Below, in pieces: positions 3,961 through 59,960 of a DNA stretch of 64,000 nt. The position numbers were made by a program, and so were the translations under genes. This stretch comes from Schmidtea polychroa (Eukaryota). Every line of letters begins with the position of its first letter. Position 1 is the stretch's first letter. The DNA lies in contig CM097886.1 in assembly GCA_044892525.1 (NCBI GenBank), positions 103,912,001 through 103,976,000 on the forward strand, written 5' to 3'. Under the pieces are notes generated by a model that was not told the DNA's origin, made no database searches, and was given only the letters and a program-made list of their open reading frames with translations.

Positions 3961-4069
3961 AGTTGGAGATGAAATAAATTCAGTCGAAGTGTATTGCTTG
4001 ATATCAAACAAAACGATGAATTCATACAAACAAATAACTTAGGCTTTAAAACTTCTTGTTCTGCGCGCA

Positions 4070-22854: not shown

Positions 22855-22890
<36 letters not shown>

Positions 22891-33308: not shown

Positions 33309-34830
33309 CTGGGATGCTACCCGAGCGGGTACGTGTATTTAATTCGGATAGCGGGTAATTATTATCGGGTAACGGAACCCGAATTCGGGTAATATTCAAA
33401 TAAATTCATTTTTTATTCATTAAAACAAAGGGAGCATTGTATCAAAGTTATCTTGATCATTTTCAATAAGAACTAAATTATGATTATATCTCAAAAATAA
33501 AATATCATCAACAAGATTTGATGAAAGATTATGAATATGTTTATGAAAATTAAAATATCTTTCAACAGCTGCTTCACTTATAGAAATTCCAGAAATTTTA
33601 TGATTCAAAAATAATTGCAATCTTTTAGGAATGTTCGCATGAGGATTGAATTCAATATCAGCTGCATCTTGATTAAATTCAGGAATGTTCAATGAATTAA
33701 GCCATCTAGATAGAATAGAGTAATCATTATCATTTAACAGTTTTTTTTCATTTACAAATTGAATCAATGTAATAATAGGATTCGCAATTAAAGGAATTCT
33801 TTTTTCAATAATTTGCATCCATGAATTTCTTTCAGATTTACGAATTTGCGTAATCACACCTTCAAATATTTTATGAAATTCAATCCAATTTGAACCATCT
33901 TTTTAAGCATAATTTAGAGCATTAATAATTGGCTCTATCGTGGTGATAGCATTTTGAATTCTGTGAATCAATTCTTCATTATAATTTGAATTTTGTTCAA
34001 TTAATTTCAAAAGTTCAATTAGTTTATCAAAGACACTATTCCAACGTATTTCACAGTATCTTGATATCGTTCCATTATTGATGAATTCTAGCAAAATACT
34101 CAATGAGTTTCTCAACATTTCTACTTCTTTAAATGAATCTTTTATAAAAGTTCAAAATATGAGCTGCTAAAGGAAAAATTGTAGGATTCAAGTTGTAGCA
34201 GCTATCATATTTCTGGCATTATCAGTAACGATAGCAATAATTGTAATTTCATACATACTCAAAAATTGAATTACTTCAAAAACACAATTTGAAATTGTAT
34301 CTGCGGTTGAATCATGGATTTGGAAGCTTTTGAAGAACACAGTAATTGATGGTCGATCGCCAAAGAAAAATATTAAAGATAGATGTTTGTCATTTGAAAC
34401 TTGGTTTTTCCATCCATCTAACGCTAAATTTATCCATTGTTCTCTATTTTTAGAAAACAAAAATTCACATTTCTCTCTAGCCATTCAAATAATTTCACTT
34501 CTAACAATCTCTCGAAATTTTTGGAAGATTGAAACCTTTTGAAATTATGGGATCTTCCAAAATTTGCAATGGAAGTACGTTTCGACTTGAACTAAGAGTT
34601 AATACATATCTTTCAATTAGAGACATAATTGATATTGTACTCTCAGAAGAATTTTGAAAATTGAATTTGAGTAGGCTAGGTTGATTAGAAGATATTGAAC
34701 ATTTAGACTTCTCTTTTGCTTCAAGAACTTCAGGATGCTTGCTTTTTAAATGTCTCAAAAGATAGCTTGTTCCTGTTTTCTTTCGATTATAAGAAAGTTT
34801 TGAAGAACATTTTGCATATAGCGACATCTA
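33309..34830 (-). mobile_element. Degenerate hAT (Ac/Tip100-like) element with BED-finger transposase
   Basis: BED finger (AKCSSKLSY..GTSYLLRHLKSKH), LALDGW, IVTDNARNM, AAHILN, IRWNS and ISEAAVERYF spread over four broken ORFs (33420-34827). End-like GGGATGC plus ACCCG/CGGGT subterminal words at 33309-33395. Confidence 0.85.
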
Positions 34831-35153: not shown

Positions 35154-37187
35154 ATGAAGTTTTCGATGATACGTTCGTGCTACTTGTGTACTATCTATTT
35201 ATATGCTATCTTATGTAGGTTATTGAGTTTTTATTAAATCTTTTTATTAATGCTTGTGCAAAGGAGAAATATTGCAGAGCCCAGCCGAGTTACCAGTAAA
35301 TAAACTGTCTCGGGAGTGAATGAAAATGATTATTGGAAACTGTAAACCATTTAAACATTATAAGAGAATTAACTCAATGTATTTCTGTCCATGTCATAAG
35401 CGCATAAACTCTTTTGATTTTGTCTTCATTTTACTAACTAAGATTAAATGTTTAGTGTGACATAAATGTTTTTAGATTATTTGGCCAGAAATCTTTCAAC
35501 ATGTAGTGCACGGCCTTATAAATAATTTGCGGCGTTTAAAATATTAAACTTAATTTGACTTGTTTTGTTTTAATATTATAAGTAAACAAAGTTATTTTAA
35601 ATAATAAAAAATTGAATGTAAACTATTTACTCAAAATTTTAATTAATATCGAAGAACTTAATTATATTATAATTTAGGCACTGATTTTTCATGTATTATT
35701 TAAAATATCACTTAAAACACTGTCGACAATTTGTGTTAAAAGAAAACATTCAACTCTAATTGAAAGCTAAATAAAAACAAATAAAATTTAAAAAAAAATA
35801 GATCAAAGGTAAAAACAAATAAAATTAAAAAAAAAATAGATCAAAGGTAAAGAAGTAAAATATAAATGGCGCTACTGAAATATAAAAATTAAAAATCTAA
35901 TAGTAGGAACTCTAAATTTTTAAATAATTAAAATTATTAAAACATTTAAGACTTAGAGTGATCGCCCGCAATTTATATTCAGTAAAATAATTATCAAAAA
36001 TTCCAAAAATTATAGAAAATACTGTTAGGTTTTTTTTGCAAAATAAACAACATAATAAAATAAAAGAATAATTAAAAAATGTCAAAATGAAAATTTCATA
36101 TTTTCTAACAAATTCAACTCGGTTTTCTGATATTTACTTTTCTTTCGAGAAAATCCGATTTCTAATCATTCTCAATTATGACTTACTAACTCAAATGCCC
36201 TACCACCTTCAGGAGGGCATATAGTCAGATTAATTAAACGATATAATGTTAATTAATTGTGACATAATTATAAAAAAATATATTGTTCATGCCAATGTTC
36301 TTTCAGAATTATATTAGTCTAATCTAAGGTATTAAATTGCTATATTAAGTCTTTCAAAAATAAAATATTTAGATTAAAAATACTTGTCTGCTGCTAAAGA
36401 ACCTCTTAATTTTAATTCGGAATTAAAAATTTAAAAATAAAACAAATAATAAAATTTTATGATTAAATTGAATTAAACAAATTAAATATTTTATTTCTTT
36501 GTTCTGGTGCTTTTGTGCAATAATTTGTTTTGTATTAATATGTTTCATAGATTTATTGTGTACTTCTTTCACTTTCTAAAGAATGATCTATCACTATATT
36601 TATTCCAGGGTAGTAGTCTACCACCACGGTTTTTCTTGATAAGTAAAAAAATGTTTAAGTAGCAAATCATATAATAACCAAAATATTATGCCAGCAATTG
36701 GTAAATAATTAGGATTACAAATATATTATTAGTACACAGCCCAATCCGCTCATCATGCTTTGCAAATAGATTTTTGTAGGGCAGTATTATGATTGGAGGT
36801 CTCGATGTTATGTTAGTGCGCACTAGTATGTAAACGTCTGCACATCTACGTCATACAACGTCATACCAAGCGTCAAGCCAAAGATGGTACCTCGTAAGCA
36901 TAAAGCACTCTGCTCAAGGAAACGCCTCCTAGTCTATTGATCTATTCTAATTATCGCGTTCGTAAATAACTTCAAATTTTGATCCGACCAGCTCTGAATC
37001 TCATTAAAATGAGTCCCAGATGCTACTGCAGACTTCATAGTGGCATACTGACCCAGTTCTGCCTTTTAGTCATGTATTAATTTAACTATGATCGGTTATC
37101 CACTTATGAAATACGACTGGACCGAACAACGTCTGCTCTGTAAAATTTGCAATTATTTCTTTGGTGTCACCCCTCTGAGATAATGTC

Positions 37188-37267
<80 letters not shown>

Positions 37268-38083
37268 CAGATTATAAGGAAGATTTTAATTATAAGATTT
37301 TCATTCATTTGTGCAAAATAGGTAATAGGTTTATAAATAAGTATAAAATTCTGGTTGGATTGTGTTCAGATTTCGTTTATCAATTTACATGTAATGCTAT
37401 TCTCAAGTTCTTGAACAGTGTTGACTAAAGGGAAAAATAATATTAGTAAGTAAAATATGTATGTTTAATTTTTTTCTAAATTACCTGATGATGGCAAGAA
37501 AACTGTGGAAATATATTGTGTTGGGGGATGTTGGTGAAATATTAAATTAAAAAAAAATAATATTATTAATATATATAAAAAATAATAATTTTTTTTGGTA
37601 ATAGTAATTCAATCCAGTGGCGTCACTAGGGGGTGCGGAGTGAGGGCCGCACCGGATGACACTAATTTCTTAATTTGTCACCAAAATGAAAAAAAAAACA
37701 TTTATTTTTGTGAAATTTAAAAATTTTATCAATATCTCTAACATAGTTACGGTATACATAATATTTAAAGGAAATTAGGACAGGACAAAAAAAAGTTATT
37801 TTTAACGGATTTGTGGACCATTCGCTTAACTTGTGCGGTCAACACTCTTTTGCTGAAAATGCTTCATGTGTAACTTTTTTCAATTTGCAATGAATTCCAA
37901 ATGATGTAAATTTTAATGACTAAACTCAAATATAACCTTTTTTCCAAAACATTTCCTCTGCCACAATAAATTCTTCGCGAGAAACACCATTATTAAATAT
38001 ATTATCAATGATCCCTCAACTATTACCTTAATTTAATTTTGAAAATCACAGATTATTTTTCTGAACTTTTTTACTCCGACAAG

Positions 38084-38235
38084 CAACGTTCCCTCTAAGC
38101 TGCGCGAGTGCGCTCGCGCAGCACCTCCAACTACCCAGCGCAGTATATTTAATTCAACTGCTCATTTGTATTTAAAGGCTGCTCAGCGCAGCTGACTTTG
38201 CGCGCACTGCTGCTTATGGCTTAGAGGGAACATTG
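38084..38235. mobile_element. hAT-type MITE (152 bp)
   Basis: TIR CAACGTTCCCTCTAAGC / GCTTAGAGGGAACATTG; 8-bp TSD CCGACAAG / CCAACAAG (1 mismatch). Confidence 0.8.
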
Positions 38236-38753
38236 CCAACAAGCCGCTCAAAGCAGCAGTTGGTTACTTAGGGAGAATAATTATACGCTCAGATCGATTC
38301 CCCAAATTTCCTTCATGACTTGACAAGAATCTCCCATACGGGTGCCCGTGATGATGTGTCACGTTGTTAATGCACACGCCGGTCGGAACTTATAAGCAGG
38401 TGAGCCCCTGTGTTAGGACTACTCCCTGTAAGGTTCACTGTACGGGTTCTGGAGTGCCGTAGAAGGACTTACCTCATCTTGTTATTTGATCAATCTAGTA
38501 CGACCCTGGTCCAAAGGGACGATCTTACCTACTCAGTACTGAGATACTACAAAATACGTCAGGATCTAACTCAGACAAACTACTTAACAATGATAAAGCG
38601 CGAGACAGATATTAACAACATTTATTACATATGATGACAATACTTGAGTTTAGCAGATAATCAGCAGTCATGCCTTATAAACAGTTTATTTAGTTTCAGG
38701 GCGAAGATCATTTAGTCGCAAATGGTGTCGAAGGTATCCTTCAAATCTCCTGC

Positions 38754-39077
38754 TCACAAGGGCATTTCTTCCTCGGCTAACAGGGCATCGATATCTACCT
38801 GTAGCCACGGGTCTTCTGGGAGAGGAAGTGTCTCAGACGGAACAATTTGGTAAGTCTCTGTCTGTACTGGCAATTTCTTATCTGTCTCTACAGTGCTCCC
38901 AATCGTAAGATTTTCGTCCTCTTTCATCTGTGGCGGGGAGAACCACGTGTGCTCCAGTGTCTCAATACGCTTCTTGAGAATCCCGATGTGTTCCTGCAGC
39001 TTTTTGATGTCCGCATTTATATCAGAGCACAAAAAGCACGGTTTCGGCCTGCGTGGAGGTATATTTGGCTCTGACAT
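38754..39077 (-). CDS. Orphan 107-aa protein (MSEPNIPPRRPKPCFLC...), CxxC + coiled-coil-like segment + acidic tail
   Basis: Uninterrupted ORF in a GC-balanced island; TATAAAA (39134-39128) ~50 nt upstream of the ATG; AATAAA (38690-38685) ~65 nt after the stop. No family recognised. Confidence 0.45.
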   Translation of the reverse strand: MSEPNIPPRRPKPCFLCSDINADIKKLQEHIGILKKRIETLEHTWFSPPQMKEDENLTIGSTVETDKKLPVQTETYQIVPSETLPLPEDPWLQVDIDALLAEEEMPL

Positions 39078-39516
39078 TTCTGAATTAAAGATGATAAATA
39101 CCGATCGTAACAATAAGAACTTGGACGTTTTATATTGGCCTACCCTATCTTTCTCCTTTCGACGAAGTTTCGCTTTAGAGTCTAATCATATTCATTGTCG
39201 CAAGATAACACATTTCATATCGCATTTTAATGTTTAGGGTAAGACTGGATCAAGATAAAATGTTGAAGAACAAAAAAAATAGTTTAATTATTTCTGCATT
39301 CTAATTCAATAATTATATTAGTTATCATATGTGAGTTACATGTAGAGTGCATTTTGCGGTGATTTATGAGATTCTGTGATTACCGACGTTCTTTGAGGGT
39401 TGTTTCTATCTCTAGTTATTATGAAAATTGAAATGAGTTCTAACGTCTAAAATTTTAATTCATTGGGTACTGTTAGTTTCATTATAAAAATTTCACATAG
39501 TTCAGATAATTCTAAG

Positions 39517-39772
39517 CAGTGGCGTAACTAGTGGACGCAGGACCCTGCGTTGCGGGGGCCCACCAGCTATAGGGGGCCCAAAATTATTACTAAAAAAATA
39601 TTTACAATCATTTTCTGAAACTTTTTCCCCGCAGTTATATTTGCCTACAAACATAAAACTTTCATTGAATAGCGGCTGCTGTGAATAACTATGTATTAAA
39701 CTTTAACCGAAAAATTTAAGTGGAATTATTTTACATTGCGCGGGGGGCCAAAATTTTGAAGTTCCGCCACTG
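39517..39772. mobile_element. hAT-type MITE (256 bp)
   Basis: CAGTGGCGTAAC ... GTTCCGCCACTG; perfect 8-bp TSD ATTCTAAG. Confidence 0.85.
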
Positions 39773-39789
39773 ATTCTAAGGGCATTTAG

Positions 39790-40334
39790 ATTTCCACTTT
39801 ATCGTCAAATACTTATAAACAATTGATCACTGCCCGTCCGGAAACGGCTATAACTGAATTAGAGATTGTTTATATGAAAATACTGGGTGGACGTCCAGAA
39901 ATTATCGTGCGAATTAATTTATTTTGTTTATTCACGGTTATTTACAGTGGCATGATCGGAAGTTTTCAGCTAAACAATAGTTTGTGTATACATCTCGATT
40001 CGTGAGGACAGTAACCTAAGATCGCGATTGACGTTGACGATTCGAAAACTTTGTTTACTGGCTTAAATGATGTTGGACATTACAATATTATCACTACCGG
40101 ATGCGATGATTATTTACGAAATTTTTGATTCGTCTGTCGATTAGTCTATGACTTCTATTTGCGTGGAAATTTTTAACGATACTTGAACAAGAAAATGAAG
40201 CAGCGGGAAGAAAATTGGCTTCTAACTCATGTACCATTCCTACAACTATAGAAAACCGTGTATTCAGTTGACAGATTATAATAGGAATTTCCTACGAATT
40301 TTCCGATGGAATATTTTACGGAACTGTCTGAGGG
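39790..40334 (+). pseudogene. Possible decayed cadherin-repeat coding sequence, continuing at 54843-55150 beyond the giant insertion
   Basis: Broken-frame words FTVIYSGMIG, IAIDVDD, IQLTDYN.N..EFSDGIFYGTV(S)E and, after the element, DDLCENSNITY, resembling cadherin DxNDNxPxF..Y...V.E / A.D.D motifs. Requires frameshifts. Confidence 0.3.
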
Positions 40335-40435
40335 AGTAGGTAGATAGTAGCGCCCGGCAGCAATGACCCCCCCGGGGGGGGGGGGTTCTGCTGCCGTAAT
40401 TTTTTTGCTGCAACTTTTGATTACGCAATTTTTCA

Positions 40436-41510
40436 GACTATAGTGAGGGGGTCTCGATGGTCCTGGGATTTTCAATACAAAAAAATTTTTTCTATACAAA
40501 AACGATGGTCCTGGGATTTTCAATACAAAAAAATTTTTTCAATACAAAAACGATGGTCCTGGAATTTTCAATACAAAAAAATTTTTTCTATACAAAAACG
40601 ATGGTCCTGGGATTTTCAATACAAATAAAATTTTTTCTATACAAAAATCCGACTACCACTAAAAAAGCATGGAATTTTCAATACAAAAAAATTTTTTCAA
40701 TACAAAAACGATGGTCCTGGGATTTTCAATACAAATAAAATTGTTTCAATACAAAAATCCGACTACCACTAAAAAAGCATGGAATTTTCACACTATAGTG
40801 AGGGGGGTCTCGATGGTCCTGGGATTTTCAATACAAATAAAATTTTTTCAATACAAAAATCCGACTACCACTAAAAAAGCATGGAATTTTCACACTATAG
40901 TGAGGGGGGTCTCGATGGTCCTGGGATTTTCAATACAAAAAATTTTTTTCTATACAAAAATCCGACTACCACTAAAAAAGCATGGAATTTTCACACTATA
41001 GTGAGGGGGTCTCGATGGTCCTGGGATTTTCAATACAAAAAATTTTTTTCTATACAAAAATCCTACTATCAATAAAAAAGCCAAGGATTTATCACACTAT
41101 AGTGAGGTGAGTCTCCTTGGTCCTGAGAAATAGGTGGTCTACACTAAAAAAGCATGGTAATTTAAGGTCTCAGGATATTTTCAATACAAAAAGCTGGTCT
41201 ACACTAAAAAAGCCAAGGATTTTTCAGACTATAGTGAGGGGGTCTCGATGGTCCTGGGATTTTCAATACAAATAAAATTTTTTCAATACAAAAACGATGG
41301 TCCTGGGATTTTCAATACAAATAAAATTTTTTCAATACAAAAATCCGACTACCACTAAAAAAGCCAAGGATTTTTCACACTATAGTGAGGTGAGTCTCCT
41401 TGGTCCTGAGAAATAGGTGGTCTACACTAAAAAAGCCAAGGATTTTTCAGACTATAGTGAGGTGAGTCTCCTTGGTCCTGAGAAAAAGGTGGTCTACACT
41501 AAAAAACGTG
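40436..41510 (+). repeat. Subterminal composite array (43-bp and ~101-bp units; mirrored at 53860-54730)
   Basis: Recurring CTATAGTGAGG, GATGGTCCTGGGATTTTCAATACAAA, TCCGACTACCACTAAAAAAG and GTGAGTCTCCTTGGTCCTGAG words. Confidence 0.95.
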
Positions 41511-42480
41511 GTAAATTATTCAATTAAAGTAAATAATGGTCCAAATTTTTAAATTAAAGTAAATAATGGTTCTAAAAAATTAAATTACAGTAAATAATGG
41601 CTCAAAAAATTTAAATTAAAGTAAATTATGGTTCTAAAAAATTAAATTACAGTAAATAATGGCTCAAAAATTTAAATTAAAGTAAATTATGGTCCAAATT
41701 TTTCAATTAAAGTAAATAATGGTCCTAAAAAATTAAAGTAAATAATGGTCCAAATTTTTGAATTAAAGTAAATTATGGTCCTAAAATTAAATTAAAGTAA
41801 ATTAAGGTTCTAAAAACTTAAATTACAGTAAATTATGGTTCTTAAAAATTTAATTACAGTAAATAATGGTCCAAATTTTTGAATTAAAGTAAATTATGGT
41901 TCAAATTTTTAAATTAAAGTAATGAATGGGCTCAAATAACTAAAGTAAGGTTCTAAAAAATTAAATTAAAGTAAATTAAGGTTCAAATTTTTCAATTAAA
42001 GTAAATTATGGTCCAAATTTTTGAATTACAGTAAATAATGGTCCAAATTTTTGAATTACAGTAAATAATGGTTCTAAAAATTGAATTACAGTAAATTATG
42101 GTTCTAAAAAATTAAATTACAGTAAATTATGGTTCTTAAAAATTAAATTACAGTAAATAATGGTCCAAATTTTTCAATTACAGTTAATTATGGTTCTAAA
42201 AAATTAAATTAAAGTAAATTAAGGTTCAAATTTTTCAATTAAAGTAAATAATGGTCCAAATTTTTTAATTAAAGTAAATTATGGTTCAAATTTTTAAATT
42301 AAAGTAATGAATGGGCTCAAATAACTAAATTAAGGTTCTAAAAAATTAAATTAAAGTTAATTAAGGTCCAAATTTTAAAATTAAGTAATCAATGGTCAAA
42401 AATTTTAAATTAAAGTTAAATAAGTAAATTAAAGTAATAATTTTTAAATAAGTAATGTAATAAGTAAATTAAAGTAAGAT
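41510..42480 (+). repeat. ~30-bp AT-rich minisatellite (AATTA(A/C)AGTAAAT(A/T)ATGGT..AAA; mirrored 52890-53860)
   Basis: Direct observation of ~30 degenerate units. Confidence 0.9.
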
Positions 42481-42729
42481 TTTAAAATTTATTAACAAAA
42501 AGTTGAAATAATAGAAGGTGTTTGAGAATTGAAATTTTTTAATGAAAATTTTTATGAAATAATTTTTTAAGTAATTTTTAATAGAAATTTTTATGGAATA
42601 ATTTTTTAAGTTAATTTTTAATGGAAATTTTTATGAAATATTTTTCAATGATAATTTTAGATGGAAATTTTTAAGATAATTTTTAATGAAAATTTCTATG
42701 AAATATTTTTCAAAGACAAATTTTAATAA

Positions 42730-43810
42730 TAATTCAACAACAAACCAACAACTTAGTACCAACAACCAGTAACTTATGAACATGTATTAACAATCAGATA
42801 CCTACAACTAGTTACTAACAACCTGCTACCAAGTACTTACAATCAGTTACCTGCTACCAAATACTTTCAACATGATACCACGTACTAAATAACTCTCAAA
42901 CAACCAGATACTTACAACCAATTACCAGATACCAAGTACCTACAACTAGTTACTAACAACTAGTTACCTGATACTAAGTACCTACAACCATCTAACAAGT
43001 ACTAACAACCAAAAACAAGCAACCAACTAGGTACCAAGTACTAACAACCGACAACAACCAGCTAACAACTAACTACAACCTACCAAGTACCTACAACCAC
43101 ATACTAACAACTAGTTACCAGATAGCAACTACTCACAGACGTCAACAACCAGGTACTAAGCATTATTAACCAACTACTAAGTACCAACAACAACTAACTA
43201 CCAACTACTAAGTACCTACAACCACCTACCTATTAACTAGCTACAACCACCTACCAACTAGCTACCACCTACCCATTAACTAGTTACAACCAGCTAACTA
43301 GGTACTAGATACCAAGTACTAACAACCAGTTACCTGCTACTAAGTACCAACAACCACCTACCAAGTACATACAACCAACATCAACCAGGTACTAAGCATT
43401 AATTACCAACTACTAAGTACCTACAATCACCTACCCATTAACTAGTTACTAAGTACTATCAACCAACTAGGTACTAGATACCAAGTACTAACAACCAACA
43501 ACAACCAGGTACTAATCATTAATTACCAATTACTAAGTACCTACAACCATCTACCAAGTACATACAACCAAGTACTAAGCATTATTAACCAACTACTAAG
43601 TACCAACAACCGACTAGCTACCAACTAGGTACCAAGTACTAACAACCGACAACAACCAGCTAACAACTAACTACAACCTACCAAGTACCTACAACTAGAT
43701 ACTAACAACTAGTTACCAGATACCTACTACTCACAGCCGTCAACAACCAGGTACTAAGCATCATCAACCAAGTAATAACAACTAGATACCTAGTACTTAC
43801 AACCAGATGA
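42730..43810 (+). repeat. Strand-skewed AAC/TAC-rich degenerate array (mirrored 51560-52635)
   Basis: Words TACCAAGTACTAACAACC, CTACAACC and AACTAG; plus strand is G-poor. Confidence 0.9.
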
Positions 43811-44326
43811 CCACATGAAATTATTGGTTAAATAAGTAAATTAATGTCTAATTTTTAAATTAAGTAATCAATGGTCTAAAATATTAAAGTTAAAGTTAAT
43901 TTAAGATGAAGATTTTCTGGGATTTCCAATGTTAATTTTAGTAGCAAATCTTCGTCAATTAATCAATGACCACATGAAATTATTAGTTAAATATGAAAAT
44001 AAGGGTTATAATTAGTTGTTTAGTAAATTATGGTGTAAAATTAAGAAATAAAGAATAATTAGGTAAATTAACGATAAATTAAGGAAAATTAAGGTTCAAA
44101 ATTTAAAATTAAGTAACCAATGGTTCAAATTTTAAATTAAAGCTAAATAAGTAAATTAAAGTAAGATTTTTAAATTTATTATCAAAAGATTGAATAACCA
44201 CCAACTTTTTTGAGAAATGTAATTTTTAATGAAAATTTAAATGGAAATTTTTTTTAAGTTAATTTTAAATGTAAAATTTTTTAAGTTAATTTTAATGAAA
44301 TAATTTTTTAAGTTAATTTTTTAATG

Positions 44327-44327
<1 letters not shown>

Positions 44328-44393
<66 letters not shown>
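44328..44393. repeat. (AAT)22 microsatellite (mirror (ATT)22 at 50974-51039)
   Basis: 66 bp in both arms. Confidence 0.95.
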
Positions 44394-47300
44394 TCAACAG
44401 TTCCCAACAATCGGTTACTAAATATTTTTAACTAGATGCTAACAAATACTTTGAACATGATACCACGTACTAACTAACTCTCAAACAACCAGATACCTAC
44501 AACTAGTTACTAACAACCAACTAAGTATTCTTTATTGTATTTTATGAAATGTTTTTAAATTAATTTTTTATCTGTCTTTAAAAATATGTTTAATTACAAT
44601 CAATAGAAAACCTTTTCAAAATGTCTAAATTTAACAAACATGTTGACTTTCATCAAAAAACCACAACTCAATCACTTTAAAACACCACGTGAAATTCAAA
44701 ATAATTTAAATTACAATGAAATACTAATGAATTCTAATTTACAAAAACATCTTCTTTTAAATGATAACTTATTATTGCATCGTAAAATCACATTCAATAA
44801 ATACTTATTGTTGATCAGTTTTATTATATATACTCTGAGTTTATCCGACAGGATGTTTTGACCCCCTAAGGGTACAGGTCGTAAGGGTACTGGTCGTAAG
44901 GGTATTAGTCGTAAAGGTTCTAGTCGTAAGGATATTGCTAACTCTCAACCCCCACCTACCCATTAACTAGCTACTAAGTACTAACAACCAGTTACCTGAT
45001 ACCAAGTACATACAACCAACATCAACCTGTTACTAAGCATTATCAACCTACAACTATATAACAACAATCAGTAAACAACACTCTACCAACTATTAAATAC
45101 AAGATACCAACAACTAGATACCAACAATCAACTAACCACACATAAAAATAATAGCAATTAAATACAAAATATTCTTCATCACATACACTATCTTCTTATC
45201 AAAATCTAAAAAGTCAATCAGATACCAACTACCAACTACCAAGTACTAACAACCAACTACCTACAACCAACAACTATGTACTAACAAATTGATCTTTAAA
45301 AGAAAAATACTCATCACTTGAAAAATTAGATGGAAAATTAATTGAACTCAAGACATCAATAACTTGGTAAAAATTGATTAAATAATTGCAAAAATTTAAA
45401 TTTACTCAAAATAAATATCATAAAAATTTAATTAATAGACAAGAAAGAATTCTATTCATTAATCATCCAGTAAATAAAAAAATACTGATCATTCAAGTTG
45501 AATCAACTAAGATAATAAATTAATAAGATAAGATTTAGTAGATAATTGATTTAGATTGAATAAATTAATTGAAATAAAATTAATTTTAATTATTTTTTTT
45601 AAAAATAATACATGTACTGAAATTGATTGACTGAATGCTCAAAATATTCAAAAATCAGTATAAATTCATTAAAATTATCAATGTCATCAATCTACAATAA
45701 AAATAATTATCATTAAATTCCAAAAGAGACTAGAAAACTAACAAACCAGAAAATTCATTCAAATGACAATAATTGGTATATTCAAGCGAATTCTCTAATA
45801 AAATCATCTAAAAAGAATCATTTCGCCTGAAATATCTCTATTTTTAAAGATTAGTATCTTATCGATAAGTACTTGTTAAATATAATATATTCACCTCAAA
45901 CTAACAAGATTCCTTAAAATCCCTTAAATGACTATATTTCTACCCTTAATCAATATTATTACAAATAATTCAATAAAATCATCTAAAAAGCATCAAATTT
46001 CCCAAAAATAACTCTATCTTTAAAGATTAGTATTTTATCGATAAATATCCTTAAAAGGTTATATATTTACCTCAGACTAATAAGATTCCTTAAAATCCCC
46101 TTTAAATGACTATAATTCTAACTTTAATTCGTATTATCACAAATATTTCCCTATAAAACAGGTAAAATCATTAACTCTAAATAATTTATAAAATCTAATG
46201 ATAAAACCGGTTATAATTAAATTTTTGTTAATCACTGTACTCGAAATTTAAAATAAATATTGCTTGAAATTTGACTGTACAATATAACTGAGTAGTTGCA
46301 TAGAAAGATTAAATTTATCCATATTTCTTCAAATGATCATTTTTACCGATATCCAACCGATTTAATTACTAATTAAAATCAAGATTTCTCCCAATAAAGA
46401 TCAATTTTCTTTAGTCGACGTTTTAAATCAATATTTCCAACTTTTGTCGTTGTCCGTCTAAATAAAGATAAAAAATAATTTAAAGTTGATATCAATCCCA
46501 ATTATCTGTAAAGTTTTCATTGTCAAAACCAAGTAAATAGATTATCCCTACTTAATAAAACATTGTTCTAAAACATAAATCTAAATTAATTTACTGTGCA
46601 TTAATCACAACCTAATAAAACAATATAATTATTATTGATTCATAACTAATGTATTGCAATTTCCCTTAAAACATTGATATTTTGCCAACATCACCATTAA
46701 AAAAATCATATATTCCCATCTTAACCCATCCTTAATTAAATTTAACCAACTATATCCCCTCAAAAGATCATATTTTCCCACCTTATTCGATCCCTCATTA
46801 AATCTAACCGACAATATCCCATCTTAACCGATCTCTCACCAAATATTTCTACCCTTTTAAACATCTAACCAAATATATCCTTCAATTCTACCCACTTGAA
46901 TCCTCCTTTAATTCAATTCAGTCTTAAAATCCTTAGAGAGAATTCTTCAAAAAATATGACTTTTAATTAACTGTTAAAGACACCAGACATTCTTCTAATG
47001 AAATAATTTAGTAGCTAAATAATAAGAGCCACTAAAAGGTCAAAATTCACTAAAATTTTCTACAAATATTCACCATCAAATACCTAACTGGAGATGATAC
47101 ATATATTAATTGATGATAATTCTTCAGCTATTCAACCAATCATTTTCAAGCAGTAACAGCAAACTAAATTTCTGTATATCCTACAATAATTATCAAGTAA
47201 ATTTAAAGTCCTTGATAAGGTTAACTGTTTCTTAGCTTATGTTTTTTAAAGTTCATCAAAGTGTAAATATTCTTAGAAAAATATTGAAAAATTATTTATT

Positions 47301-47966
47301 CAAATACATTACAAAGTTATCATCAAAAATCACTTAATTATTAACCTAATTGTCAATGAAATTAATTTTTATTTAAAAACTATTCAATAAAATACAACTA
47401 ATTATCAAGAAATTAATTAAATTTATCAATTAAATTTATCAGTCAACATGAAATTCTTAGAAAATTATTCAATATCCTCATAAAAATTTATCCACTTGAT
47501 TATTGTAAAAACTCTAATTATTAACATTGAAAATAAATTTTATTTAAAATTAAAAAACCAATCAATAAAAATACATTCAATTATCAAGAAATTAATTAAA
47601 TTTACCTTAGAATTAGCATTAAATTACAGAAATTCACAAAAATAATGGAAATTCACAAAAATGATAAAAATTCACAAAAATAATAGAAATTCATGAAAAT
47701 GATAGATTACGGAAATTCATGAAAATATTAGAAATTCACAAAAAATGATGGAAATTCATGAAAATGATAGAAATTCATAAAAATGATAGAAATTTACTTG
47801 AATAAAACCATCAACTCTAAAAATTATCAATGCCTTAAACAACAAATTTGTCTAAATAATCATTCAAATAAAAGCATTAAATACCTTTACGACTAATACA
47901 CTTACGACATGTTGAATGTGAGTAGTACCCTTGTGAGCAATACCCATAGGGGGACAGAATATTTTT

Positions 47967-47989
47967 TCGGATAAACTCAGAGTATATAT
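47967..47989 (+). promoter_or_regulatory. Conserved 23-nt motif TCGGATAAACTCAGAGTATATAT (also 50519-50541 + and 44826-44848 -)
   Basis: Exact identity between core and arm copies while flanks are diverged; preceded in each case by TTACGAC repeats and AGGGGG. Function is inferred. Confidence 0.45.
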
Positions 47990-48881
47990 TAATTAACTCA
48001 TTCAAATTTATCATTGAATCAGTAAATTATCATAAATTTCGATAAAAATTCTAATGTGGTAAGCAATGAAAAGAGAAATATTCTTTAAACTTAGATAAAA
48101 CTAACAATGAAGGTGGTAAGAATCATTAAAGTGAGAAAATTATTCATTACTCGATGATAAATTCAAATGGATGAAAATAATTGGTAGAATAATTTATTAA
48201 TGGGCATAGATAAGAAAAAAGGTTGATAAGAATGGAAATATATTAATTGAATTTATTTAAAATTATTTCATAAAATTCATAAAAAAAAAACTTTTAAAAG
48301 AAATATTTGTGGAGATGTTTTAGGTGAAAATTAATCAAAATCGGCGGAATATAATTGATTAAATATCGAGGATGGGGGTTATAATTAATGGAAAATCAAT
48401 GGGATACAAATGATTAAATAGTGGAAAATCCGGGAATATAAGTGATTAATTAATGGAATATTGAGAATCGGAGGAATATCAATGAGAAGGATATATAATT
48501 TAAACTAGTTTATTACATAACAAGCCGCGACTAGTTTATTACATAACAAGCCGTGAATGGTATTTTACCAACATTTTTAAAGTATGTTATTTAATTTTAA
48601 TTTTATTTTTAAATTGTACATATTTTGAATATCATTCTATTGTTTAATTTCGATAATAAGTATAAAAAGTCTATAATGATTAATAAATTAATATCTTGTT
48701 AACATTTACCAGAGAATTTAAAAAACTTTACTTAAAATTTAGTGAAGTATTTAATTTTGATTGTACTTTATAAGACATATATTTGAGTATTAACTTATTT
48801 TGATTGAAGTATCACATTCAATATTATGATGATTTTTGGTTGAATAGCTGAAGAATTATCATCAATTAATATATGTATCAT

Positions 48882-50973
48882 CTTTAAATTATTTTTTATC
48901 TTTATTTAGACGGACAACGACAAAAGTTGGAAATATTGATTTAAAACGTCGACTAAAGAAAATTGATCTTTATTGGGAGAAATCTTGATTTTAATTAGTA
49001 ATTAAATCGGTTGGATATCGGTAAAAATGATCATTTGAAGAAATATGGATAAATTTAATCTTTCTATGCAACTACTCAGTTATATTGTACAGTCAAATTT
49101 CAAGCAATATTTATTTTAAATTTCGAGTACAGTGATTAACAAAAATTTAATTATAACCGGTTTTATCATTAGATTTTATAAATTATTTAGAGTTAATGAT
49201 TTTACCTGTTTTATAGGGAAATATTTGTGATAATACGAATTAAAGTTAGAATTATAGTCATTTAAAGGGGATTTTAAGGAATCTTATTAGTCTGAGGTAA
49301 ATATATAACCTTTTAAGGATATTTATCGATAAAATACTAATCTTTAAAGATAGAGTTATTTTTGGGAAATTTGATGCTTTTTAGATGATTTTATTGAATT
49401 ATTTGTAATAATATTGATTAAGGGTAGAAATATAGTCATTTAAGGGATTTTAAGGAATCTTGTTAGTTTGAGGTGAATATATTATATTTAACAAGTACTT
49501 ATCGATAAGATACTAATCTTTAAAAATAGAGATATTTCAGGCGAAATGATTCTTTTTAGATGATTTTATTAGAGAATTCGCTTGAATATACCAATTATTG
49601 TCATTTGAATGAATTTTCTGGTTTGTTAGTTTTCTAGTCTCTTTTGGAATTTAATGATAATTATTTTTATTGTAGATTGATGACATTGATAATTTTAATG
49701 AATTTATACTGATTTTTGAATATTTTGAGCATTCAGTCAATCAATTTCAGTACATGTATTATTTTTAAAAAAAATAATTAAAATTAATTTTATTTCAATT
49801 AATTTATTCAATCTAAATCAATTATCTACTAAATCTTATCTTATTAATTTATTATCTTAGTTGATTCAACTTGAATGATCAGTATTTTTTTATTTACTGG
49901 ATGATTAATGAATAGAATTCTTTCTTGTCTATTAATTAAATTTTTATGATATTTATTTTGAGTAAATTTAAATTTTTGCAATTATTTAATCAATTTTTAC
50001 CAAGTTATTGATGTCTTGAGTTCAATTAATTTTCCATCTAATTTTTCAAGTGATGAGTATTTTTCTTTTAAAGATCAATTTGTTAGTACATAGTTGTTGG
50101 TTGTAGGTAGTTGGTTGTTAGTACTTGGTAGTTGGTAGTTGGTATCTGATTGACTTTTTAGATTTTGATAAGAAGATAGTGTATGTGATGAAGAATATTT
50201 TGTATTTAATTGCTATTATTTTTATGTGTGGTTAGTTGATTGTTGGTATCTAGTTGTTGGTATCTTGTATTTAATAGTTGGTAGAGTGTTGTTTACTGAT
50301 TGTTGTTATATAGTTGTAGGTTGATAATGCTTAGTAACAGGTTGATGTTGGTTGTATGTACTTGGTATCAGGTAACTGGTTGTTAGTACTTAGTAGCTAG
50401 TTAATGGGTAGGTGGGGGTTGAGAGTTAGCAATATCCTTACGACTAGTACCTTTACGACTAATACCCTTACGACCAGTACCCTTACGACCTGTACCCTTA
50501 GGGGGTCAAAACATCCTGTCGGATAAACTCAGAGTATATATAATAAAACTGATCAACAATAAGTATTTATTGAATGTGATTTTACGATGCAATAATAAGT
50601 TATCATTTAAAAGAAGATGTTTTTGTAAATTAGAATTCATTAGTATTTCATTGTAATTTAAATTATTTTGAATTTCACGTGGTGTTTTAAAGTGATTGAG
50701 TTGTGGTTTTTTGATGAAAGTCAACATGTTTGTTAAATTTAGACATTTTGAAAAGGTTTTCTATTGATTGTAATTAAACATATTTTTAAAGACAGATAAA
50801 AAATTAATTTAAAAACATTTCATAAAATACAATAAAGAATACTTAGTTGGTTGTTAGTAACTAGTTGTAGGTATCTGGTTGTTTGAGAGTTAGTTAGTAC
50901 GTGGTATCATGTTCAAAGTATTTGTTAGCATCTAGTTAAAAATATTTAGTAACCGATTGTTGGGAACTGTTGA

Positions 50974-51040
<67 letters not shown>

Positions 51041-54000
51041 CATTAAAAAATTAACTTAAAAAATTATTTCATTAAAATTAACTTAAAAAATTTTACATTT
51101 AAAATTAACTTAAAAAAAATTTCCATTTAAATTTTCATTAAAAATTACATTTCTCAAAAAAAGTTGGTGGTTATTCAATCTTTTGATAATAAATTTAAAA
51201 ATCTTACTTTAATTTACTTATTTAGCTTTAATTTAAAATTTGAACCATTGGTTACTTAATTTTAAATTTTGAACCTTAATTTTCCTTAATTTATCGTTAA
51301 TTTACCTAATTATTCTTTATTTCTTAATTTTACACCATAATTTACTAAACAACTAATTATAACCCTTATTTTCATATTTAACTAATAATTTCATGTGGTC
51401 ATTGATTAATTGACGAAGATTTGCATCTAAAATTAACATTGGAAATCCCAGAAAATCTTCATCTTAAATTAACTTTAACTTTAATATTTTAGACCATTGA
51501 TTACTTAATTTAAAAATTAGACATTAATTTACTTATTTAACCAATAATTTCATGTGGTCATCTGGTTGTAAGTACTAGGTATCTAGTTGTTATTACTTGG
51601 TTGATGATGCTTAGTACCTGGTTGTTGACGGCTGTGAGTAGTAGGTATCTGGTAACTAGTTGTTAGTATCTAGTTGTAGGTACTTGGTAGGTTGTAGTTA
51701 GTTGTTAGCTGGTTGTTGTCGGTTGTTAGTACTTGGTACCTAGTTGGTAGCTAGTCGGTTGTTGGTACTTAGTAGTTGGTTAATAATGCTTAGTACTTGG
51801 TTGTATGTACTTGGTAGATGGTTGTAGGTACTTAGTAATTGGTAATTAATGATTAGTACCTGGTTGTTGTTGGTTGTTAGTACTTGGTATCTAGTACCTA
51901 GTTGGTTGATAGTACTTAGTAACTAGTTAATGGGTAGGTGATTGTAGGTACTTAGTAGTTGGTAATTAATGCTTAGTACCTGGTTGATGTTGGTTGTATG
52001 TACTTGGTAGGTGGTTGTTGGTACTTAGTAGCAGGTAACTGGTTGTTAGTACTTGGTATCTAGTACCTAGTTAGCTGGTTGTAACTAGTTAATGGGTAGG
52101 TGGTAGCTAGTTGGTAGGTGGTTGTAGCTAGTTAATAGGTAGGTGGTTGTAGGTACTTAGTAGTTGGTAGTTAGTTGTTGTTGGTACTTAGTAGTTGGTT
52201 AATAATGCTTAGTACCTGGTTGTTGACGTCTGTGAGTAGTTGCTATCTGGTAACTAGTTGTTAGTATGTGGTTGTAGGTACTTGGTAGGTTGTAGTTAGT
52301 TGTTAGCTGGTTGTTGTCGGTTGTTAGTACTTGGTACCTAGTTGGTTGCTTGTTTTTGGTTGTTAGTACTTGTTAGATGGTTGTAGGTACTTAGTATCAG
52401 GTAACTAGTTGTTAGTAACTAGTTGTAGGTACTTGGTATCTGGTAATTGGTTGTAAGTATCTGGTTGTTTGAGAGTTATTTAGTACGTGGTATCATGTTG
52501 AAAGTATTTGGTAGCAGGTAACTGATTGTAAGTACTTGGTAGCAGGTTGTTAGTAACTAGTTGTAGGTATCTGATTGTTAATACATGTTCATAAGTTACT
52601 GGTTGTTGGTACTAAGTTGTTGGTTTGTTGTTGAATTATTATTAAAATTTGTCTTTGAAAAATATTTCATAGAAATTTTCATTAAAAATTATCTTAAAAA
52701 TTTCCATCTAAAATTATCATTGAAAAATATTTCATAAAAATTTCCATTAAAAATTAACTTAAAAAATTATTCCATAAAAATTTCTATTAAAAATTACTTA
52801 AAAAATTATTTCATAAAAATTTTCATTAAAAAATTTCAATTCTCAAACACCTTCTATTATTTCAACTTTTTGTTAATAAATTTTAAAATCTTACTTTAAT
52901 TTACTTATTACATTACTTATTTAAAAATTATTACTTTAATTTACTTATTTAACTTTAATTTAAAATTTTTGACCATTGATTACTTAATTTTAAAATTTGG
53001 ACCTTAATTAACTTTAATTTAATTTTTTAGAACCTTAATTTAGTTATTTGAGCCCATTCATTACTTTAATTTAAAAATTTGAACCATAATTTACTTTAAT
53101 TAAAAAATTTGGACCATTATTTACTTTAATTGAAAAATTTGAACCTTAATTTACTTTAATTTAATTTTTTAGAACCATAATTAACTGTAATTGAAAAATT
53201 TGGACCATTATTTACTGTAATTTAATTTTTAAGAACCATAATTTACTGTAATTTAATTTTTTAGAACCATAATTTACTGTAATTCAATTTTTAGAACCAT
53301 TATTTACTGTAATTCAAAAATTTGGACCATTATTTACTGTAATTCAAAAATTTGGACCATAATTTACTTTAATTGAAAAATTTGAACCTTAATTTACTTT
53401 AATTTAATTTTTTAGAACCTTACTTTAGTTATTTGAGCCCATTCATTACTTTAATTTAAAAATTTGAACCATAATTTACTTTAATTCAAAAATTTGGACC
53501 ATTATTTACTGTAATTAAATTTTTAAGAACCATAATTTACTGTAATTTAAGTTTTTAGAACCTTAATTTACTTTAATTTAATTTTAGGACCATAATTTAC
53601 TTTAATTCAAAAATTTGGACCATTATTTACTTTAATTTTTTAGGACCATTATTTACTTTAATTGAAAAATTTGGACCATAATTTACTTTAATTTAAATTT
53701 TTGAGCCATTATTTACTGTAATTTAATTTTTTAGAACCATAATTTACTTTAATTTAAATTTTTTGAGCCATTATTTACTGTAATTTAATTTTTTAGAACC
53801 ATTATTTACTTTAATTTAAAAATTTGGACCATTATTTACTTTAATTGAATAATTTACCACGTTTTTTAGTGTAGACCACCTTTTTCTCAGGACCAAGGAG
53901 ACTCACCTCACTATAGTCTGAAAAATCCTTGGCTTTTTTAGTGTAGACCACCTATTTCTCAGGACCAAGGAGACTCACCTCACTATAGTGTGAAAAATCC

Positions 54001-54836
54001 TTGGCTTTTTTAGTGGTAGTCGGATTTTTGTATTGAAAAAATTTTATTTGTATTGAAAATCCCAGGACCATCGTTTTTGTATTGAAAAAATTTTATTTGT
54101 ATTGAAAATCCCAGGACCATCGAGACCCCCTCACTATAGTCTGAAAAATCCTTGGCTTTTTTAGTGTAGACCAGCTTTTTGTATTGAAAATATCCTGAGA
54201 CCTTAAATTACCATGCTTTTTTAGTGTAGACCACCTATTTCTCAGGACCAAGGAGACTCACCTCACTATAGTGTGATAAATCCTTGGCTTTTTTATTGAT
54301 AGTAGGATTTTTGTATAGAAAAAAATTTTTTGTATTGAAAATCCCAGGACCATCGAGACCCCCTCACTATAGTGTGAAAATTCCATGCTTTTTTAGTGGT
54401 AGTCGGATTTTTGTATTGAAACAATTTTATTTGTATTGAAAATCCCAGGACCATCGTTTTTGTATTGAAAAAATTTTTTTGTATTGAAAATTCCATGCTT
54501 TTTTAGTGGTAGTCGGATTTTTGTATAGAAAAAATTTTATTTGTATTGAAAATCCCAGGACCATCGTTTTTGTATAGAAAAAATTTTTTTGTATTGAAAA
54601 TTCCAGGACCATCGTTTTTGTATTGAAAAAATTTTTTTGTATTGAAAATCCCAGGACCATCGTTTTTGTATAGAAAAAATTTTTTTGTATTGAAAATCCC
54701 AGGACCATCGAGACCCCCTCACTATAGTCTGAAAAATTGCGTAATCAAAAGTTGCAGCAAAAAAATTACGGCAGCAGAACCCCCCCCCCCCCCCCCCGGG
54801 GGGGTCATTGCTGCCGTGCGCTACTATCTACCTACT
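48882..54836 (-). repeat. Right inverted arm (5,955 bp)
   Basis: Mirror of the left arm; lacks two ~101-bp subterminal units and has C18 vs G12 in the terminal homopolymer. Confidence 0.95.
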
Positions 54837-57605
54837 TGAGGGTTCTCTAATCATTCAATGAAATTTCTAATTGGAAGTTTTTACCTTGAAAATACGATGA
54901 TCTTTGCGAGAATTCAAATATCACTTATATAGATCGCTTGTCTCTTAGAACGTGAATCTATTGGAGTTTTTATGATCTATTTTATAAATCCTTCATCACA
55001 AGATGCTTCCTATCACTGTTGCTCCTCGATGACGACTCCCACTCTCTTAGAGTTAATTCATTTTCACATACCGACTCTTACGGCTTCTCCACTTACCCTG
55101 GCTCACCTGGGGACAACCGGTACTAATACCGACTATCTCCAGGCGGCCTCGATAGACGGATCAACCCAACTCAAAAAAAATGAAAACATAAATTCGAATT
55201 TTTAAATGCTCATTTAATGGATTCATCATATCATCAATAATACGAATTAAATCATATATAAAATCTACCTGGCGACCATGCCCTTTGGCTCGGAATATAA
55301 TATGCCTCTCCCTCAACTGAAAGTTCAACATCTAAACTATATTCTTCATTGAACAATTCAGCCATTCAGTATCACAAACTTTCACGCGTCTGACCTCATA
55401 TTACATCTATAATTTCCATCTGGATACTCGCACATGCTCAAAATTAGCATTCTCAATTCATTATTTTCATCATACGAGTCATGGGCTTTCATATTCAAAG
55501 TACACAAACGGCATCGTCAGCAGTCCCATAAAGAGAAAAGTCGAAATTGTCATTAATATAATATTTTGCTCTATCTAATTACGTATTACAATCATAAAAA
55601 TAAAATATTCATTATTACTTAAAATCATGTCATGAATAAAAATAGTAATTATTACTTGTTCCTTCTGATTTATGGTTCAAACTCTATTCGGTGTATTACG
55701 GTGAAGCTTTCGTAATATTTACTGAAAATTACGATTCGATGGATTCCCAAATAAATAAATTTAGAACTATATGAAATTCGTTAGTAGTCTTCAATTAATA
55801 GTCCTCAAGTAGTTCCTGTAATAGTCCTTTATGAAGTTTGGTAGAGTCTGTAAACAGTTTAGTAGAGTTTTAATCTATCTATTAAAATTAAATTTTACCC
55901 GTAAACAGTTTAGTAGAGTTGAGGGAATGACCAAGTAGTCTACCTTATATAGAATATTTTATCCAATCAGGACTTAGTTAGGTTGTATTTTTATTATTTT
56001 TATTATTTTTTTGTGTTTTAAGTGTTTTTTTTGTGTGCAGTTTGTTGTTTTAATTTTCTTTTGTTTTTATTTAATGTTTTATGCAATTACTTTATGTTTT
56101 CTTATTTAAATTTTACTCTCCTAATTCCAATTTTTATTTCGTTTAATTATTTTTTCTTTTGGTCTGTTGGTTATGGTTGGTGTTTTGTGTTTCATTTTTG
56201 TGTTTTCATTTTTGTTTCATTGTTCCTATTTCTCGTGATTTTTATTTTTTAATTGTTTCGTCCTTATTTTATTATCTGTTTTAATTTTTCTTGGTGATTC
56301 GTTCAACTCTCCTTACTGCAAGGTTTATTTTTCACTTAATTTATTTAATAATGAATTTTTGTGTTTATTAATTTTTATTTTATAGCTTCCCGTACACCTA
56401 ATCCAGCCCAACACAGCTCACAAACTTTTTTAAATGGACGGAATGCCATTCCTAGCGGCTTCAAATATTTATTGTCACTGTCTATTTTAACTATGAAGTT
56501 AGAAGGAAATTTAGCGGTACATGCATTGATTCAGTTATACAAAAAGTATAGTGGCTTCAAATATTGGTTGCCGTAGTTTATTTTTAGCTATGTAGAGGAT
56601 GTGCGGTACATGCATTGTAAGTACTATTCATGCAGTTCACTATCTGTAAATAACTAAACATTCTTTTTTTCATTCACTGTAAATGGCTAGAAGAAGCATT
56701 TGCTTTTATTGAAAATTCATGGATTAGTGAAAAGTGAAATTCTAATTCTTCAGAATTTAATTCCGATTCTTTGGTTGAAGAAATTGATGCTAGAAGTGAG
56801 AATAATTGTGAAGATGATAATAATTGGAAACCAGGTAATCACAACTTCCAGACTGATAACACTTATCAATTCAATCCAAGACGCAAACATGGATCTTGAG
56901 CTCCTGAAAAAAGTCAGTCCAAACCTAATATTAAATTCCGGAGTGAGAGTTAATCGACTAATAAAATATTTTTAGAAAGGTTTTTATGTCAATATATTTC
57001 CCATGTATTCCCCTATAAGAAAATTTTAACTATTTCACTATCAAATTAAGTCTATATTTGTTTTAATATTTAATTCTAAAATGCAATTAACTACTTTCAT
57101 TTTTAAGTAGTACGACTGCAAAATAATATTCTTAAACATTCATGCTTGTAGAATAAAAATTATCGCATTTTTTAATTATAAAAAATAAAATTTATAAAAT
57201 AAAAATTTTAATTCTGTAATCGTTTTAAAACTTTGAATAAAAATATCATTCCTAAAATTATAATTTTTTTGTGCTTTGCTAAAAAGAATTTATTTATACT
57301 AACAAAATTGTTTATATTGAAAAGGATATATTTTTGAAATTTTTAAAAACTTTTATTTTCATTTATTCTATTTAAAATTTCACATATTTTTTTATATACT
57401 TTTTACTAAAACAAATAATTATCATTTTGTCATTATAGCAGAGACTGATAATTATAACCCAATTTATTATTTATTTGTTTGTTTGGTTTCATTCAAATTC
57501 GATTTTTAAGACTTTATAAAAAATTATAAACTAGCGGAAACTATTCTAATTAAACAGTAATTTAATACAAATTAAAACCAAATCTTTTTGCATCTGTGTT
57601 TAGTT

Positions 57606-58509: not shown

Positions 58510-59960
58510 AATACATTTTACATGTTTTAAACAAGTAAATAACAGATTTAAAATATAATTTCCTGAATCAGTATTTATTACATTCCATTCTCCATCCACC
58601 GTATCTTGTTTCTGTACTTTATCTGCAATATCTTTCTTTATCGCTACAGTCATGGTATCAACTTCTTGATCCCACCCTCTGTCACTAGAGAGTCGTTTTA
58701 CAAACGAACAAGCCGGTCTCAACCAACATGCAACAGGAAAATCTCCGACCATTTGCCCAGCCATCGAAAATAATTGTCGCTTAGTGACGCTCTGTTGAAC
58801 GTCATCAATTTGATTATCACGGTTCCAGATTAATTTTTCATATTTTCTGACACATTTTAATCCAAGGACTCGAGTGCTGTTAATAAACTCTGGATCCTTT
58901 GCCTCCAATCAAAACTTTCACAGGTGTTTGACCACAGATTCTGCTGGGACCATATTCGTGTTCATAAATATATTGTCTATATATGCATCTGTTGCTTTGC
59001 TGATATCTGCATCCATTGACAGAACATCTTTCAAAACAGTAATCATGATTTTTGGAGTGACTTTGAGACCAAACTAGTGTCCTGTGAAGGCAAACGTCTT
59101 TCCCATGAAATTGACTAGTTGAAAGGTCCACAACGATTCATCAATTTATATTTGTAAATATGCTTGTAAATGGAAAGATATTCGTCTCAACCAACATGCA
59201 ACAGGAAAATCTCCGACCATTTGCCCAGCCATCGAAAATAATTGTCGCTTAGTGACGCTCTGTTGAACGTCATCAATTTGATTATCACGGTTCCAGATTA
59301 ATTTTTCATATTTTCTGACACATTTTAATCCAAGGACTCGAGTGCTGTTAATAAACTCTGGATCCTTTGCCTCCAATCAAAACTTTCACAGGTGTTTGAC
59401 CACAGATTCTGCTGGGACCATATTCGTGTTCATAAATATATTGTCTATATATGCATCTGTTGCTTTGCTGATATCTGCATCCATTGACAGAACATCTTTC
59501 AAAACAGTAATCATGATTTTTGGAGTGACTTTGAGACCAAACTAGTGTCCTGTGAAGGCAAACGTCTTTCCCATGAAATTGACTAGTTGAAAGGTCCACA
59601 ACGATTCATCAATTTATATTTGTAAATATGCTTGTAAATGGAAAGATATTCGTCAAATGTCCGATAATCCAAAGCTGGTCTCACTTTTCCTTTATTTTGT
59701 TGGATTACCGCCATCAGGGGGAGTACCAATTAGATATTTCCACTGTAAGATTGGGGCCATCCATTCATGATCAATCATTCTGCAGCCCCATTGAATTCAT
59801 CCTCAGCCTTATAGAAAACTTTATACTGATATATCGAAGCCATCACACTTGTGGAGTATTCTCGACCCAATTCTACTTTACTATCCACGCCTTGCCAGCA
59901 AACCATGCCAAGAAATTCTTGTCTTCGATGTGATTGAAGGAATTCAGGATTTTCCTTGAC
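58510..59960 (-). pseudogene. BEL/Pao-like retrotransposon RT/RNase H remnant
   Basis: TPKIM..VL..DAYIDNIF (YxDD-like), TRVLGL..W, TKRQLFS, FPVACWLRPACSFVKR..WD; stops and frameshifts. Confidence 0.65.
58716..59654. repeat. Perfect 468-bp tandem duplication
   Basis: GTCTCAACCAAC at 58716 and 59184; identical ORF pairs offset by 468 in the track; GTC microhomology at the junction. Confidence 0.95.

Follow-up and report, generated by a model that had tools for sequence, protein, structure and literature searches.

A gene-less 14.5-kb palindrome with Polinton/Maverick-like ends in Schmidtea polychroa

We analyzed a 64,000-nucleotide stretch of the Schmidtea polychroa genome (assembly GCA_044892525.1, contig CM097886.1, positions 103,912,001 to 103,976,000, forward strand), referred to as the window and numbered from its first letter. 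It contains a palindromic element of 14,502 bp, built of two long and nearly identical inverted arms around a non-coding spacer and enclosed by a 6-bp target-site duplication (TSD). The evidence supports a young, real-looking, non-autonomous insertion. In the reading that we favour, with a probability of about 0.55, the element has Polinton/Maverick-type ends and is mobilised in trans by the integrase of an autonomous Polinton.

The element and its insertion site

On both sides the element is bordered by the hexamer TGAGGG (40329-40334 and 54837-54842, + strand). The original prediction had placed it at 40329-54842, a range that has the duplications right and includes both of them; the element proper extends from 40335 to 54836. 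The duplication is perfect, as had been claimed, and cannot be extended: it is exactly 6 bp long in the one copy present, the adjacent bases differ on each side and there is no seventh match. At the local base composition a direct match of 6 bp would occur by chance with p of about 7e-4. The same hexamer also occurs in the subterminal repeat of the element (40444, 40799, 40901, 41002, 41235 and the mirror sites), and its presence in both target and repeat is probably a coincidence.

The left arm starts with the AG-rich 16-mer AGTAGGTAGATAGTAG (40335-40350, + strand), which is found once per strand in the window, solely at the two ends of the element and in inverted orientation. This confirms that the inverted termini are exact. 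The ends are AG..CT at both termini of the 14.5-kb element, and the end hexamer, AGTAGG//CCTACT, shares five of its six bases with (AGT)2//(ACT)2, the published motifs being those of vertebrates. The proposal of a Polinton-type end was correct for AG..CT, whereas the hexamer AGTAGG is not an exact (AGT)2.

Comparison of about 1 kb of left flank with the same length of right flank gave similarity scores of 25 in direct and 25 in inverted orientation, with shuffle maxima of 34 and 33. Because the flanks lack mutual similarity, the palindrome is confined to the element termini. There are no N gaps inside the element and five elsewhere in the window (128-352 bp). The flanks at 39790-40334 and 54837-55205 resemble decayed coding sequence, with long frames and few stops, and the element may lie inside a pseudogene. 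In a test of whether both flanks are parts of one interrupted gene, the left-flank frame alone found no match among 1.84 billion representatives. Pfam searches of the flank frames gave no match for the six on the right and one for the six of the left region, a weak hit (E 0.018, below the cut-off) away from the junction.

No recognisable open reading frame (ORF) was predicted in the element, and the searches agree. None of the six whole-element frames, read through stops, matched Pfam at E 0.1, and none of 18 shorter frames, taken from spacer and inner-arm sequence, did so at E 1. The longest stop-free stretches remain within shuffled expectation, both in the spacer (63 aa vs 70 aa in shuffles) and in the inner arm (84 aa vs a shuffle 95th percentile of 95). 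Neither a protein-primed PolB nor an rve integrase, the genes of an autonomous Polinton, was found by Pfam in these 24 frames. The same holds for the capsid module (MCP, mCP, ATPase, protease), for which the Pfam capsid models may be poor, but no ORF is long enough. The element is unable to move itself. That its genes had been replaced by repeats, as originally suggested, finds no backing, as the scans turned up no gene remnants. Rfam gave no matches over 37000-57000, and a contamination check with a 27-bp subterminal motif gave none in prokaryotic genomes.

Arms, spacer and a compact relative

The left arm (40335-46485, + strand) measures 6,151 bp and the right arm (48882-54836, - strand), ending in CTACTATCTACCTACT, 5,955 bp. 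Together they make up 83.5% of the element, in line with the predicted lengths and share of about 83%. Aligned end to end, the arms differ by four substitutions (40354, 43942, 43943 and 44919) and three indels: one of six G within a run, one of a 203-bp block belonging to the subterminal array and one of a single T. Over aligned bases their identity exceeds 99.9%.

Of the arm, 56% is tandem arrays, as compared to 4.5% and 14% of the background to the left and right. With dispersed direct duplications included, 78% of the arm consists of internal duplication. From the terminus inward (left-arm coordinates, + strand), both arms carry a GC-rich subterminal hairpin (40355-40396; z of -2.8, -3.5 and -4.2 in three folds). 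It is followed by a subterminal array at 40428-41520 with 48/49-bp, 102/110-bp and 72-bp units, which carries the 203-bp difference between the arms and is a candidate protein-binding array. A 30-bp tandem array of about 30 copies (41522-42423) leads into the first copy of an AT-rich module (42385-42900), a CA-rich array with 14/21/42-bp units (42761-43813) and the second copy of the AT-rich module (44110-44530), which contains (AAT)22 at 44328-44393. Further inward lie a module with a 15-bp unit repeated 4.3 times (44811-44936) and two 176-bp units (45797-46149) that are 80.4% identical to each other. The innermost part of the arm, past the 176-bp units, is a unique segment.

The spacer (46486-48881) is non-coding, 2,396 bp long and 23% GC, with tandem arrays over 19% of its length. 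Two inverted matches involve it. The right arm mirrors the left up to 46485 and then copies 47092-47139, which lies 606 bp deeper. This 48-bp block (+ strand) is the perfect inverse of 48836-48883, which continues the right arm across a 606-bp jump at a short microhomology; the match scores 96 against a shuffle maximum of 49. The other match is at 47880-48001 (- strand), where the arm module with the 15-bp unit (44814-44936) recurs as an inverted copy of greater age, 72% identical. When spacer tiles were compared with the arm, two of 24 tile-orientation tests passed, both on this one module. The 48-bp block and the 72% module copy appear to be marks of template switching between paired ends. 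Two other candidates in the spacer were rejected: a 300-bp, 64% older inverted repeat, which past the perfect 48 bp scored 33 against a shuffle mean of 32, and the mirror-like G/C skew of the two spacer halves as a sign of homology, with a score of 33 against a shuffle maximum of 43.

A diverged (60-71%) and compact relative of one whole arm, about 1.5 kb long, lies at about 22090-23595 (- strand). It has the same module order and a degenerate terminus near 23595. The similarity is clearest for the 176-bp unit, with a score of 97 against a shuffle maximum of 48, and for the AT module, with 112 against 59 and 81 against 54. The two 176-bp copies of the arm are 66.0% and 70.1% identical to the single unit of the relative. 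Copies 1 and 2 of the AT module are 63.9% and 70.6% identical to their counterpart in it and 65.5% identical to each other. The subterminal hairpin is not conserved in the relative (z -1.0). When the first 29-35 nt of the element were searched against about 99 kb outside it, the best match was the predicted end of the relative for all four query versions, with scores of 11-13, the next best being 7-9. The end of the relative may be short by one GTAG unit, its first base having mutated, or may be a Ginger-type TGTAG start. BLAST and a motif search of the window found no partner arm for the relative, and no target duplication for it was found in the window.

Other features of the window

The window is gene-poor, with 27% GC, and holds remnants of piggyBac, hAT, Mutator-like elements (MULE) and DUF7047-bearing sequence. 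The piggyBac transposase remnant lies at 10510-10908 (PF13843, E 2e-19) and the hAT remnant, with zf-BED and DUF659, at 33420-34827; a homologue search with the hAT fragment gave no match. A 260-bp inverted pair (4351-4610 and 5177-5436, 95%) adjoins a weakly matched fragment of a MULE (3973-4248, E 0.043). A Penelope-like frame at 31493-32192 was recognised by eye, without Pfam support.

The interval 16587-17264 (- strand) holds a zinc-ribbon/RING E3 ligase copy that lacks introns and resembles a pseudogene; we take it to be of the RNF115/126 type. Its zinc ribbon is matched by Pfam with E 0.0019, it is 69% identical to the one protein that it matched, P0001, and it has a 54-bp internal duplication and a decayed RING end. 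A segment at 38329-39240 is richer in GC (44% in 38001-39000) and contains a stop-free minus-strand frame of 143 aa, with a CxxC followed by a coiled-coil-like stretch. This frame had no Pfam, homolog or atlas match, and the segment is possibly part of another mobile element. The DUF7047-bearing, retroelement-like remnant includes a 468-bp tandem duplication of 100% identity (58716-59654), suggestive of an overlap error in the assembly or else of very recent duplication.

Smaller inverted repeats are also present. A near-perfect palindrome of 189 bp at 23950-24138, with arms of 94 bp at 96%, resembles miniature inverted-repeat transposable elements (MITE), and short MITE-like elements with small inverted ends occur near the locus at 37605-37632, 39507-39760, 38083-38236 and 20690-20920.

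Origin, mobilisation and relation to known elements

The large arms most likely arose by growth from a terminal repeat of ordinary size, through tandem amplification and inward copying, because 78% of the arm is duplication, the relative is compact and a 48-bp block was copied from further inside. The foldback elements Galileo and Tetris offer parallels for such growth. A terminal repeat of about 1.5 kb would have been enlarged fourfold by slippage or unequal exchange within one arm. Pairing of the arms, in a replicative panhandle or during chromosomal repair, would have transferred each change to the opposite arm, and template switching during this pairing would have shifted the repeat boundary inward. 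That the 176-bp copies resemble one another more than the unit of the relative favours growth in the young lineage, with duplication after the split. Since the internal duplications are old (65-80%) whereas the arms and target duplication are pristine, the element probably moved in its inflated form. The inflated arm would then predate this insertion, or else it has long been homogenised; a mobile family is the simpler reading. The identity of the arms cannot serve as a clock, since paired ends undergo mutual conversion.

Mobilisation would depend on a helper, an autonomous Polinton elsewhere in the genome. An integrase of the rve type would have made the 6-bp duplication, and the protein-primed polymerase of the helper would probably copy the element. 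Polintons are described with 6-bp target duplications (PMC10045372; PMC8097293), and a nematode study cites duplications of 5-8 bp and repeats of 100-1,500 bp (PMC10748475). Intact vertebrate Mavericks measure 12.7-24.6 kb and have repeats of 46-1,447 bp; their ends, (AGT)2, (AG)3 or (AC)3A, are thought to permit jump-back priming (PMC8097293). The element resembles these in its 6-bp duplication, in AG..CT ends, in its long inverted repeats and in its length, which is within the range. Its end AGTAGG comes within one base of (AGT)2. It differs in lacking the pPolB, integrase, ATPase, protease and capsid genes, and in having arms of 6 kb where about 0.1-1.5 kb is usual, a size shared by the compact relative at about 1.5 kb.

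The original prediction had stressed giant arms at Polinton length. At 6 kb they are indeed far above the vertebrate range, but it is more accurate to see them as a 1.5-kb arm skeleton that duplication and inward copying enlarged about fourfold, and long repeats are known in relatives of Polintons. Non-autonomous Polinton families are listed in Repbase, including the 'N' families of zebrafish. These share with our element the proposed trans-mobilised Polinton ends. Polinton-N1A_NV retains a capsid gene (PMC11296320), whereas our element is gene-less, and in Anolis a survey notes that non-autonomous copies are apparently absent (PMC3014272). Pieris polintons have repeats of about 2 kb and carry genes; some that lack polB keep other genes and cargo (10.1101/2025.02.07.637071). 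The repeats of the C. elegans Polinton are 744 bp long (10.1101/2024.01.15.575659).

Long terminal repeats combined with dependence on a helper are also found in endogenous mavirus-like elements (EMALE), polinton-like viruses (PLV) and transpovirons, which are linear as well (PMC8547959, PMC12220804, PMC5499653). EMALE repeats reach 2.3 kb, and truncated mavirus-like elements regain terminal repeats (PMC8547959). For PLVs of cryptophytes, the axis labels of a figure extend to repeat lengths of 6.5 kb (PMC12220804); transpovirons and Tlr are treated in PMC5499653 and PMC4028283. Unlike the S. polychroa element, the members of this group carry genes, reside in protists and depend on giant viruses, and EMALE duplications are mostly 3-5 bp. 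In its accessible sections, a review of giant transposons describes no comparable element (PMC6431247). Full-text literature searches found no gene-less, full-length, palindromic Maverick, a weak negative since Repbase and most subscription papers were outside the search.

The exact 6-bp duplication, the AG..CT ends, the unrelated flanks and the 14.5-kb length thus favour mobilisation by a Polinton, and ends, duplication and length fit Polintons best among the 6-bp groups compared. Several observations weigh against it. There is one full copy in 64 kb, and hence one duplication length, and the end is neither an exact (AGT)2 nor (AG)3. Pfam detected no Polinton gene or remnant in the 24 frames of the element and none among the 13 ORFs and 12 flank frames scanned, which cover part of the window. 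Foldback architecture occurs across superfamilies, so it has no classifying value. The relative adds further difficulties: its terminal and subterminal local alignments are not significant (18 vs 23 and 31 vs 32 for the shuffle maxima), nhmmer missed its terminus, and the five bases that begin the young end are missing from it, so that it can be read as starting with TGTAG, the TGTNR pattern of Ginger. The AT-module duplication also seems older than the split (65.5% between the copies, with copy 2 at 70.6% to the relative), and from these identities the relative may owe part of its compactness to deletion. The original idea of a Polinton satellite mobilised in trans therefore keeps its footing in ends, 6-bp TSD and length, and not as to membership, with no pPolB or integrase, no helper and one full copy; on ends, 6 bp and length, the element is a candidate non-autonomous Polinton.

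Another possibility, which we consider unlikely though worth serious attention, is that a cut-and-paste transposon, be it a MULE, P/Galileo, Ginger, IS3EU/GingerRoot-like or an unclassified type, gave rise to the element as a giant foldback derivative. The subterminal arrays would then be transposase sites and the Maverick-like end incidental. The layout agrees with this: a flanking domain, a tandem outer domain and an inner domain around a non-coding middle are also seen in Tetris and Galileo, and the element has the long modular inverted repeats, tandem arrays and non-coding middle of the foldback structural class. Tetris/Foldback elements share with it modular long repeats, tandem arrays, a non-coding middle and the lack of an ORF, but Tetris is assigned to Mutator, with duplications of 8-10 bp and repeats of at most 1,735 bp (PMC4079207). 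Galileo repeats lengthen by tandem expansion and by recruiting inner sequence, and are longest in copies without transposase (PMC3573991). Both routes of repeat growth thus recur in Galileo 2T/2RT of the P superfamily, but with 7-bp duplications, repeats of at most 1.26 kb and elements of 1.7-2.2 kb (PMC3573991). The 6-bp duplication of our element agrees with neither Tetris nor Galileo/P. Duplications of 6 bp are known for IS3EU/GingerRoot, with ends TA..TA or TG..CA (PMC10045372), whereas the young element has AG..CT on both sides. Ginger1/2 elements have TGTNR ends, 4-5 bp duplications and repeats of 40-270 bp (PMC2836005), which the 14.5-kb element does not match; the end of the relative, readable with a TGTAG start, is ambiguous in this respect. 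The MULE, hAT and piggyBac remnants in the window are compatible with a cut-and-paste origin, but the foldback repeats described reach 1.26 kb in Galileo and 1.7 kb in Tetris, and longer elements are said to transpose less efficiently.

It is improbable that the ends and the insertion are real while the interior is an assembly product, with a collapsed repeat family inflating arm length and identity or mixing copies. Elements of this type are known to disturb assemblies, and the five N gaps of 128-352 bp in the window are typical of scaffolded assemblies. The 468-bp tandem of 100% identity at 58716-59654 resembles an overlap error, and several of the differences between the arms, in homopolymer length and in a TA/AT swap, look like errors of the reads. 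However, the element is gap-free, its spacer is unique sequence, and the arms do differ, by the 203-bp array block and the substitutions at 40354 and 44919. Moreover, the palindrome stops exactly at termini with a duplication, unlike amplification chimeras. More improbable still is a gene-bearing Maverick that decayed in place, lost its interior, had one arm copied onto the other by repair and never moved as the present gene-less palindrome. Decay itself is common, 96% of vertebrate Maverick copies being degraded (PMC8097293), terminal repeats of EMALEs regenerate after truncation (PMC8547959), and the 48-bp block indicates recent inward copying. On the other hand, no gene remnant was found in 24 frames, the length is still 14.5 kb, and the internal duplications at 65-80% must precede the target duplication, which is pristine, unless the locus has a greater age than its appearance suggests.

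An extension of the favoured reading, mobilisation of a non-autonomous element by a Polinton, is more speculative. The element might be the satellite of a Polinton virus of animals: lacking genes, it would replicate through its 6-kb panhandle with the helper polymerase and enter the helper capsid, with arms serving as stuffer DNA since only lengths near 15 kb would package well. We regard this as doubtful, and selection on the element for a capsid-fitting length and a snap-back form are likewise tentative ideas, drawn from a single length. Particles of animal Polintons have not been observed, and the argument for them comes from constrained genome size (PMC8097293). A gene-less element at full Polinton length would offer a clean test of particle formation. 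Cut-and-paste parasites tend to shrink; a family whose lengths cluster near that of the helper would speak for packaging, and a wide range of lengths for plain repeat inflation. If the element is a packaged satellite, a family of tightly distributed copy lengths would be indirect evidence of Polinton particles. Even without packaging, the element would carry the foldback pattern, familiar from the Mutator and P groups, over to Polinton-type ends, with arms about four times as long, and a 12-kb palindrome of this kind would probably give rise to rearrangements, hairpin RNA and novel satellite arrays.

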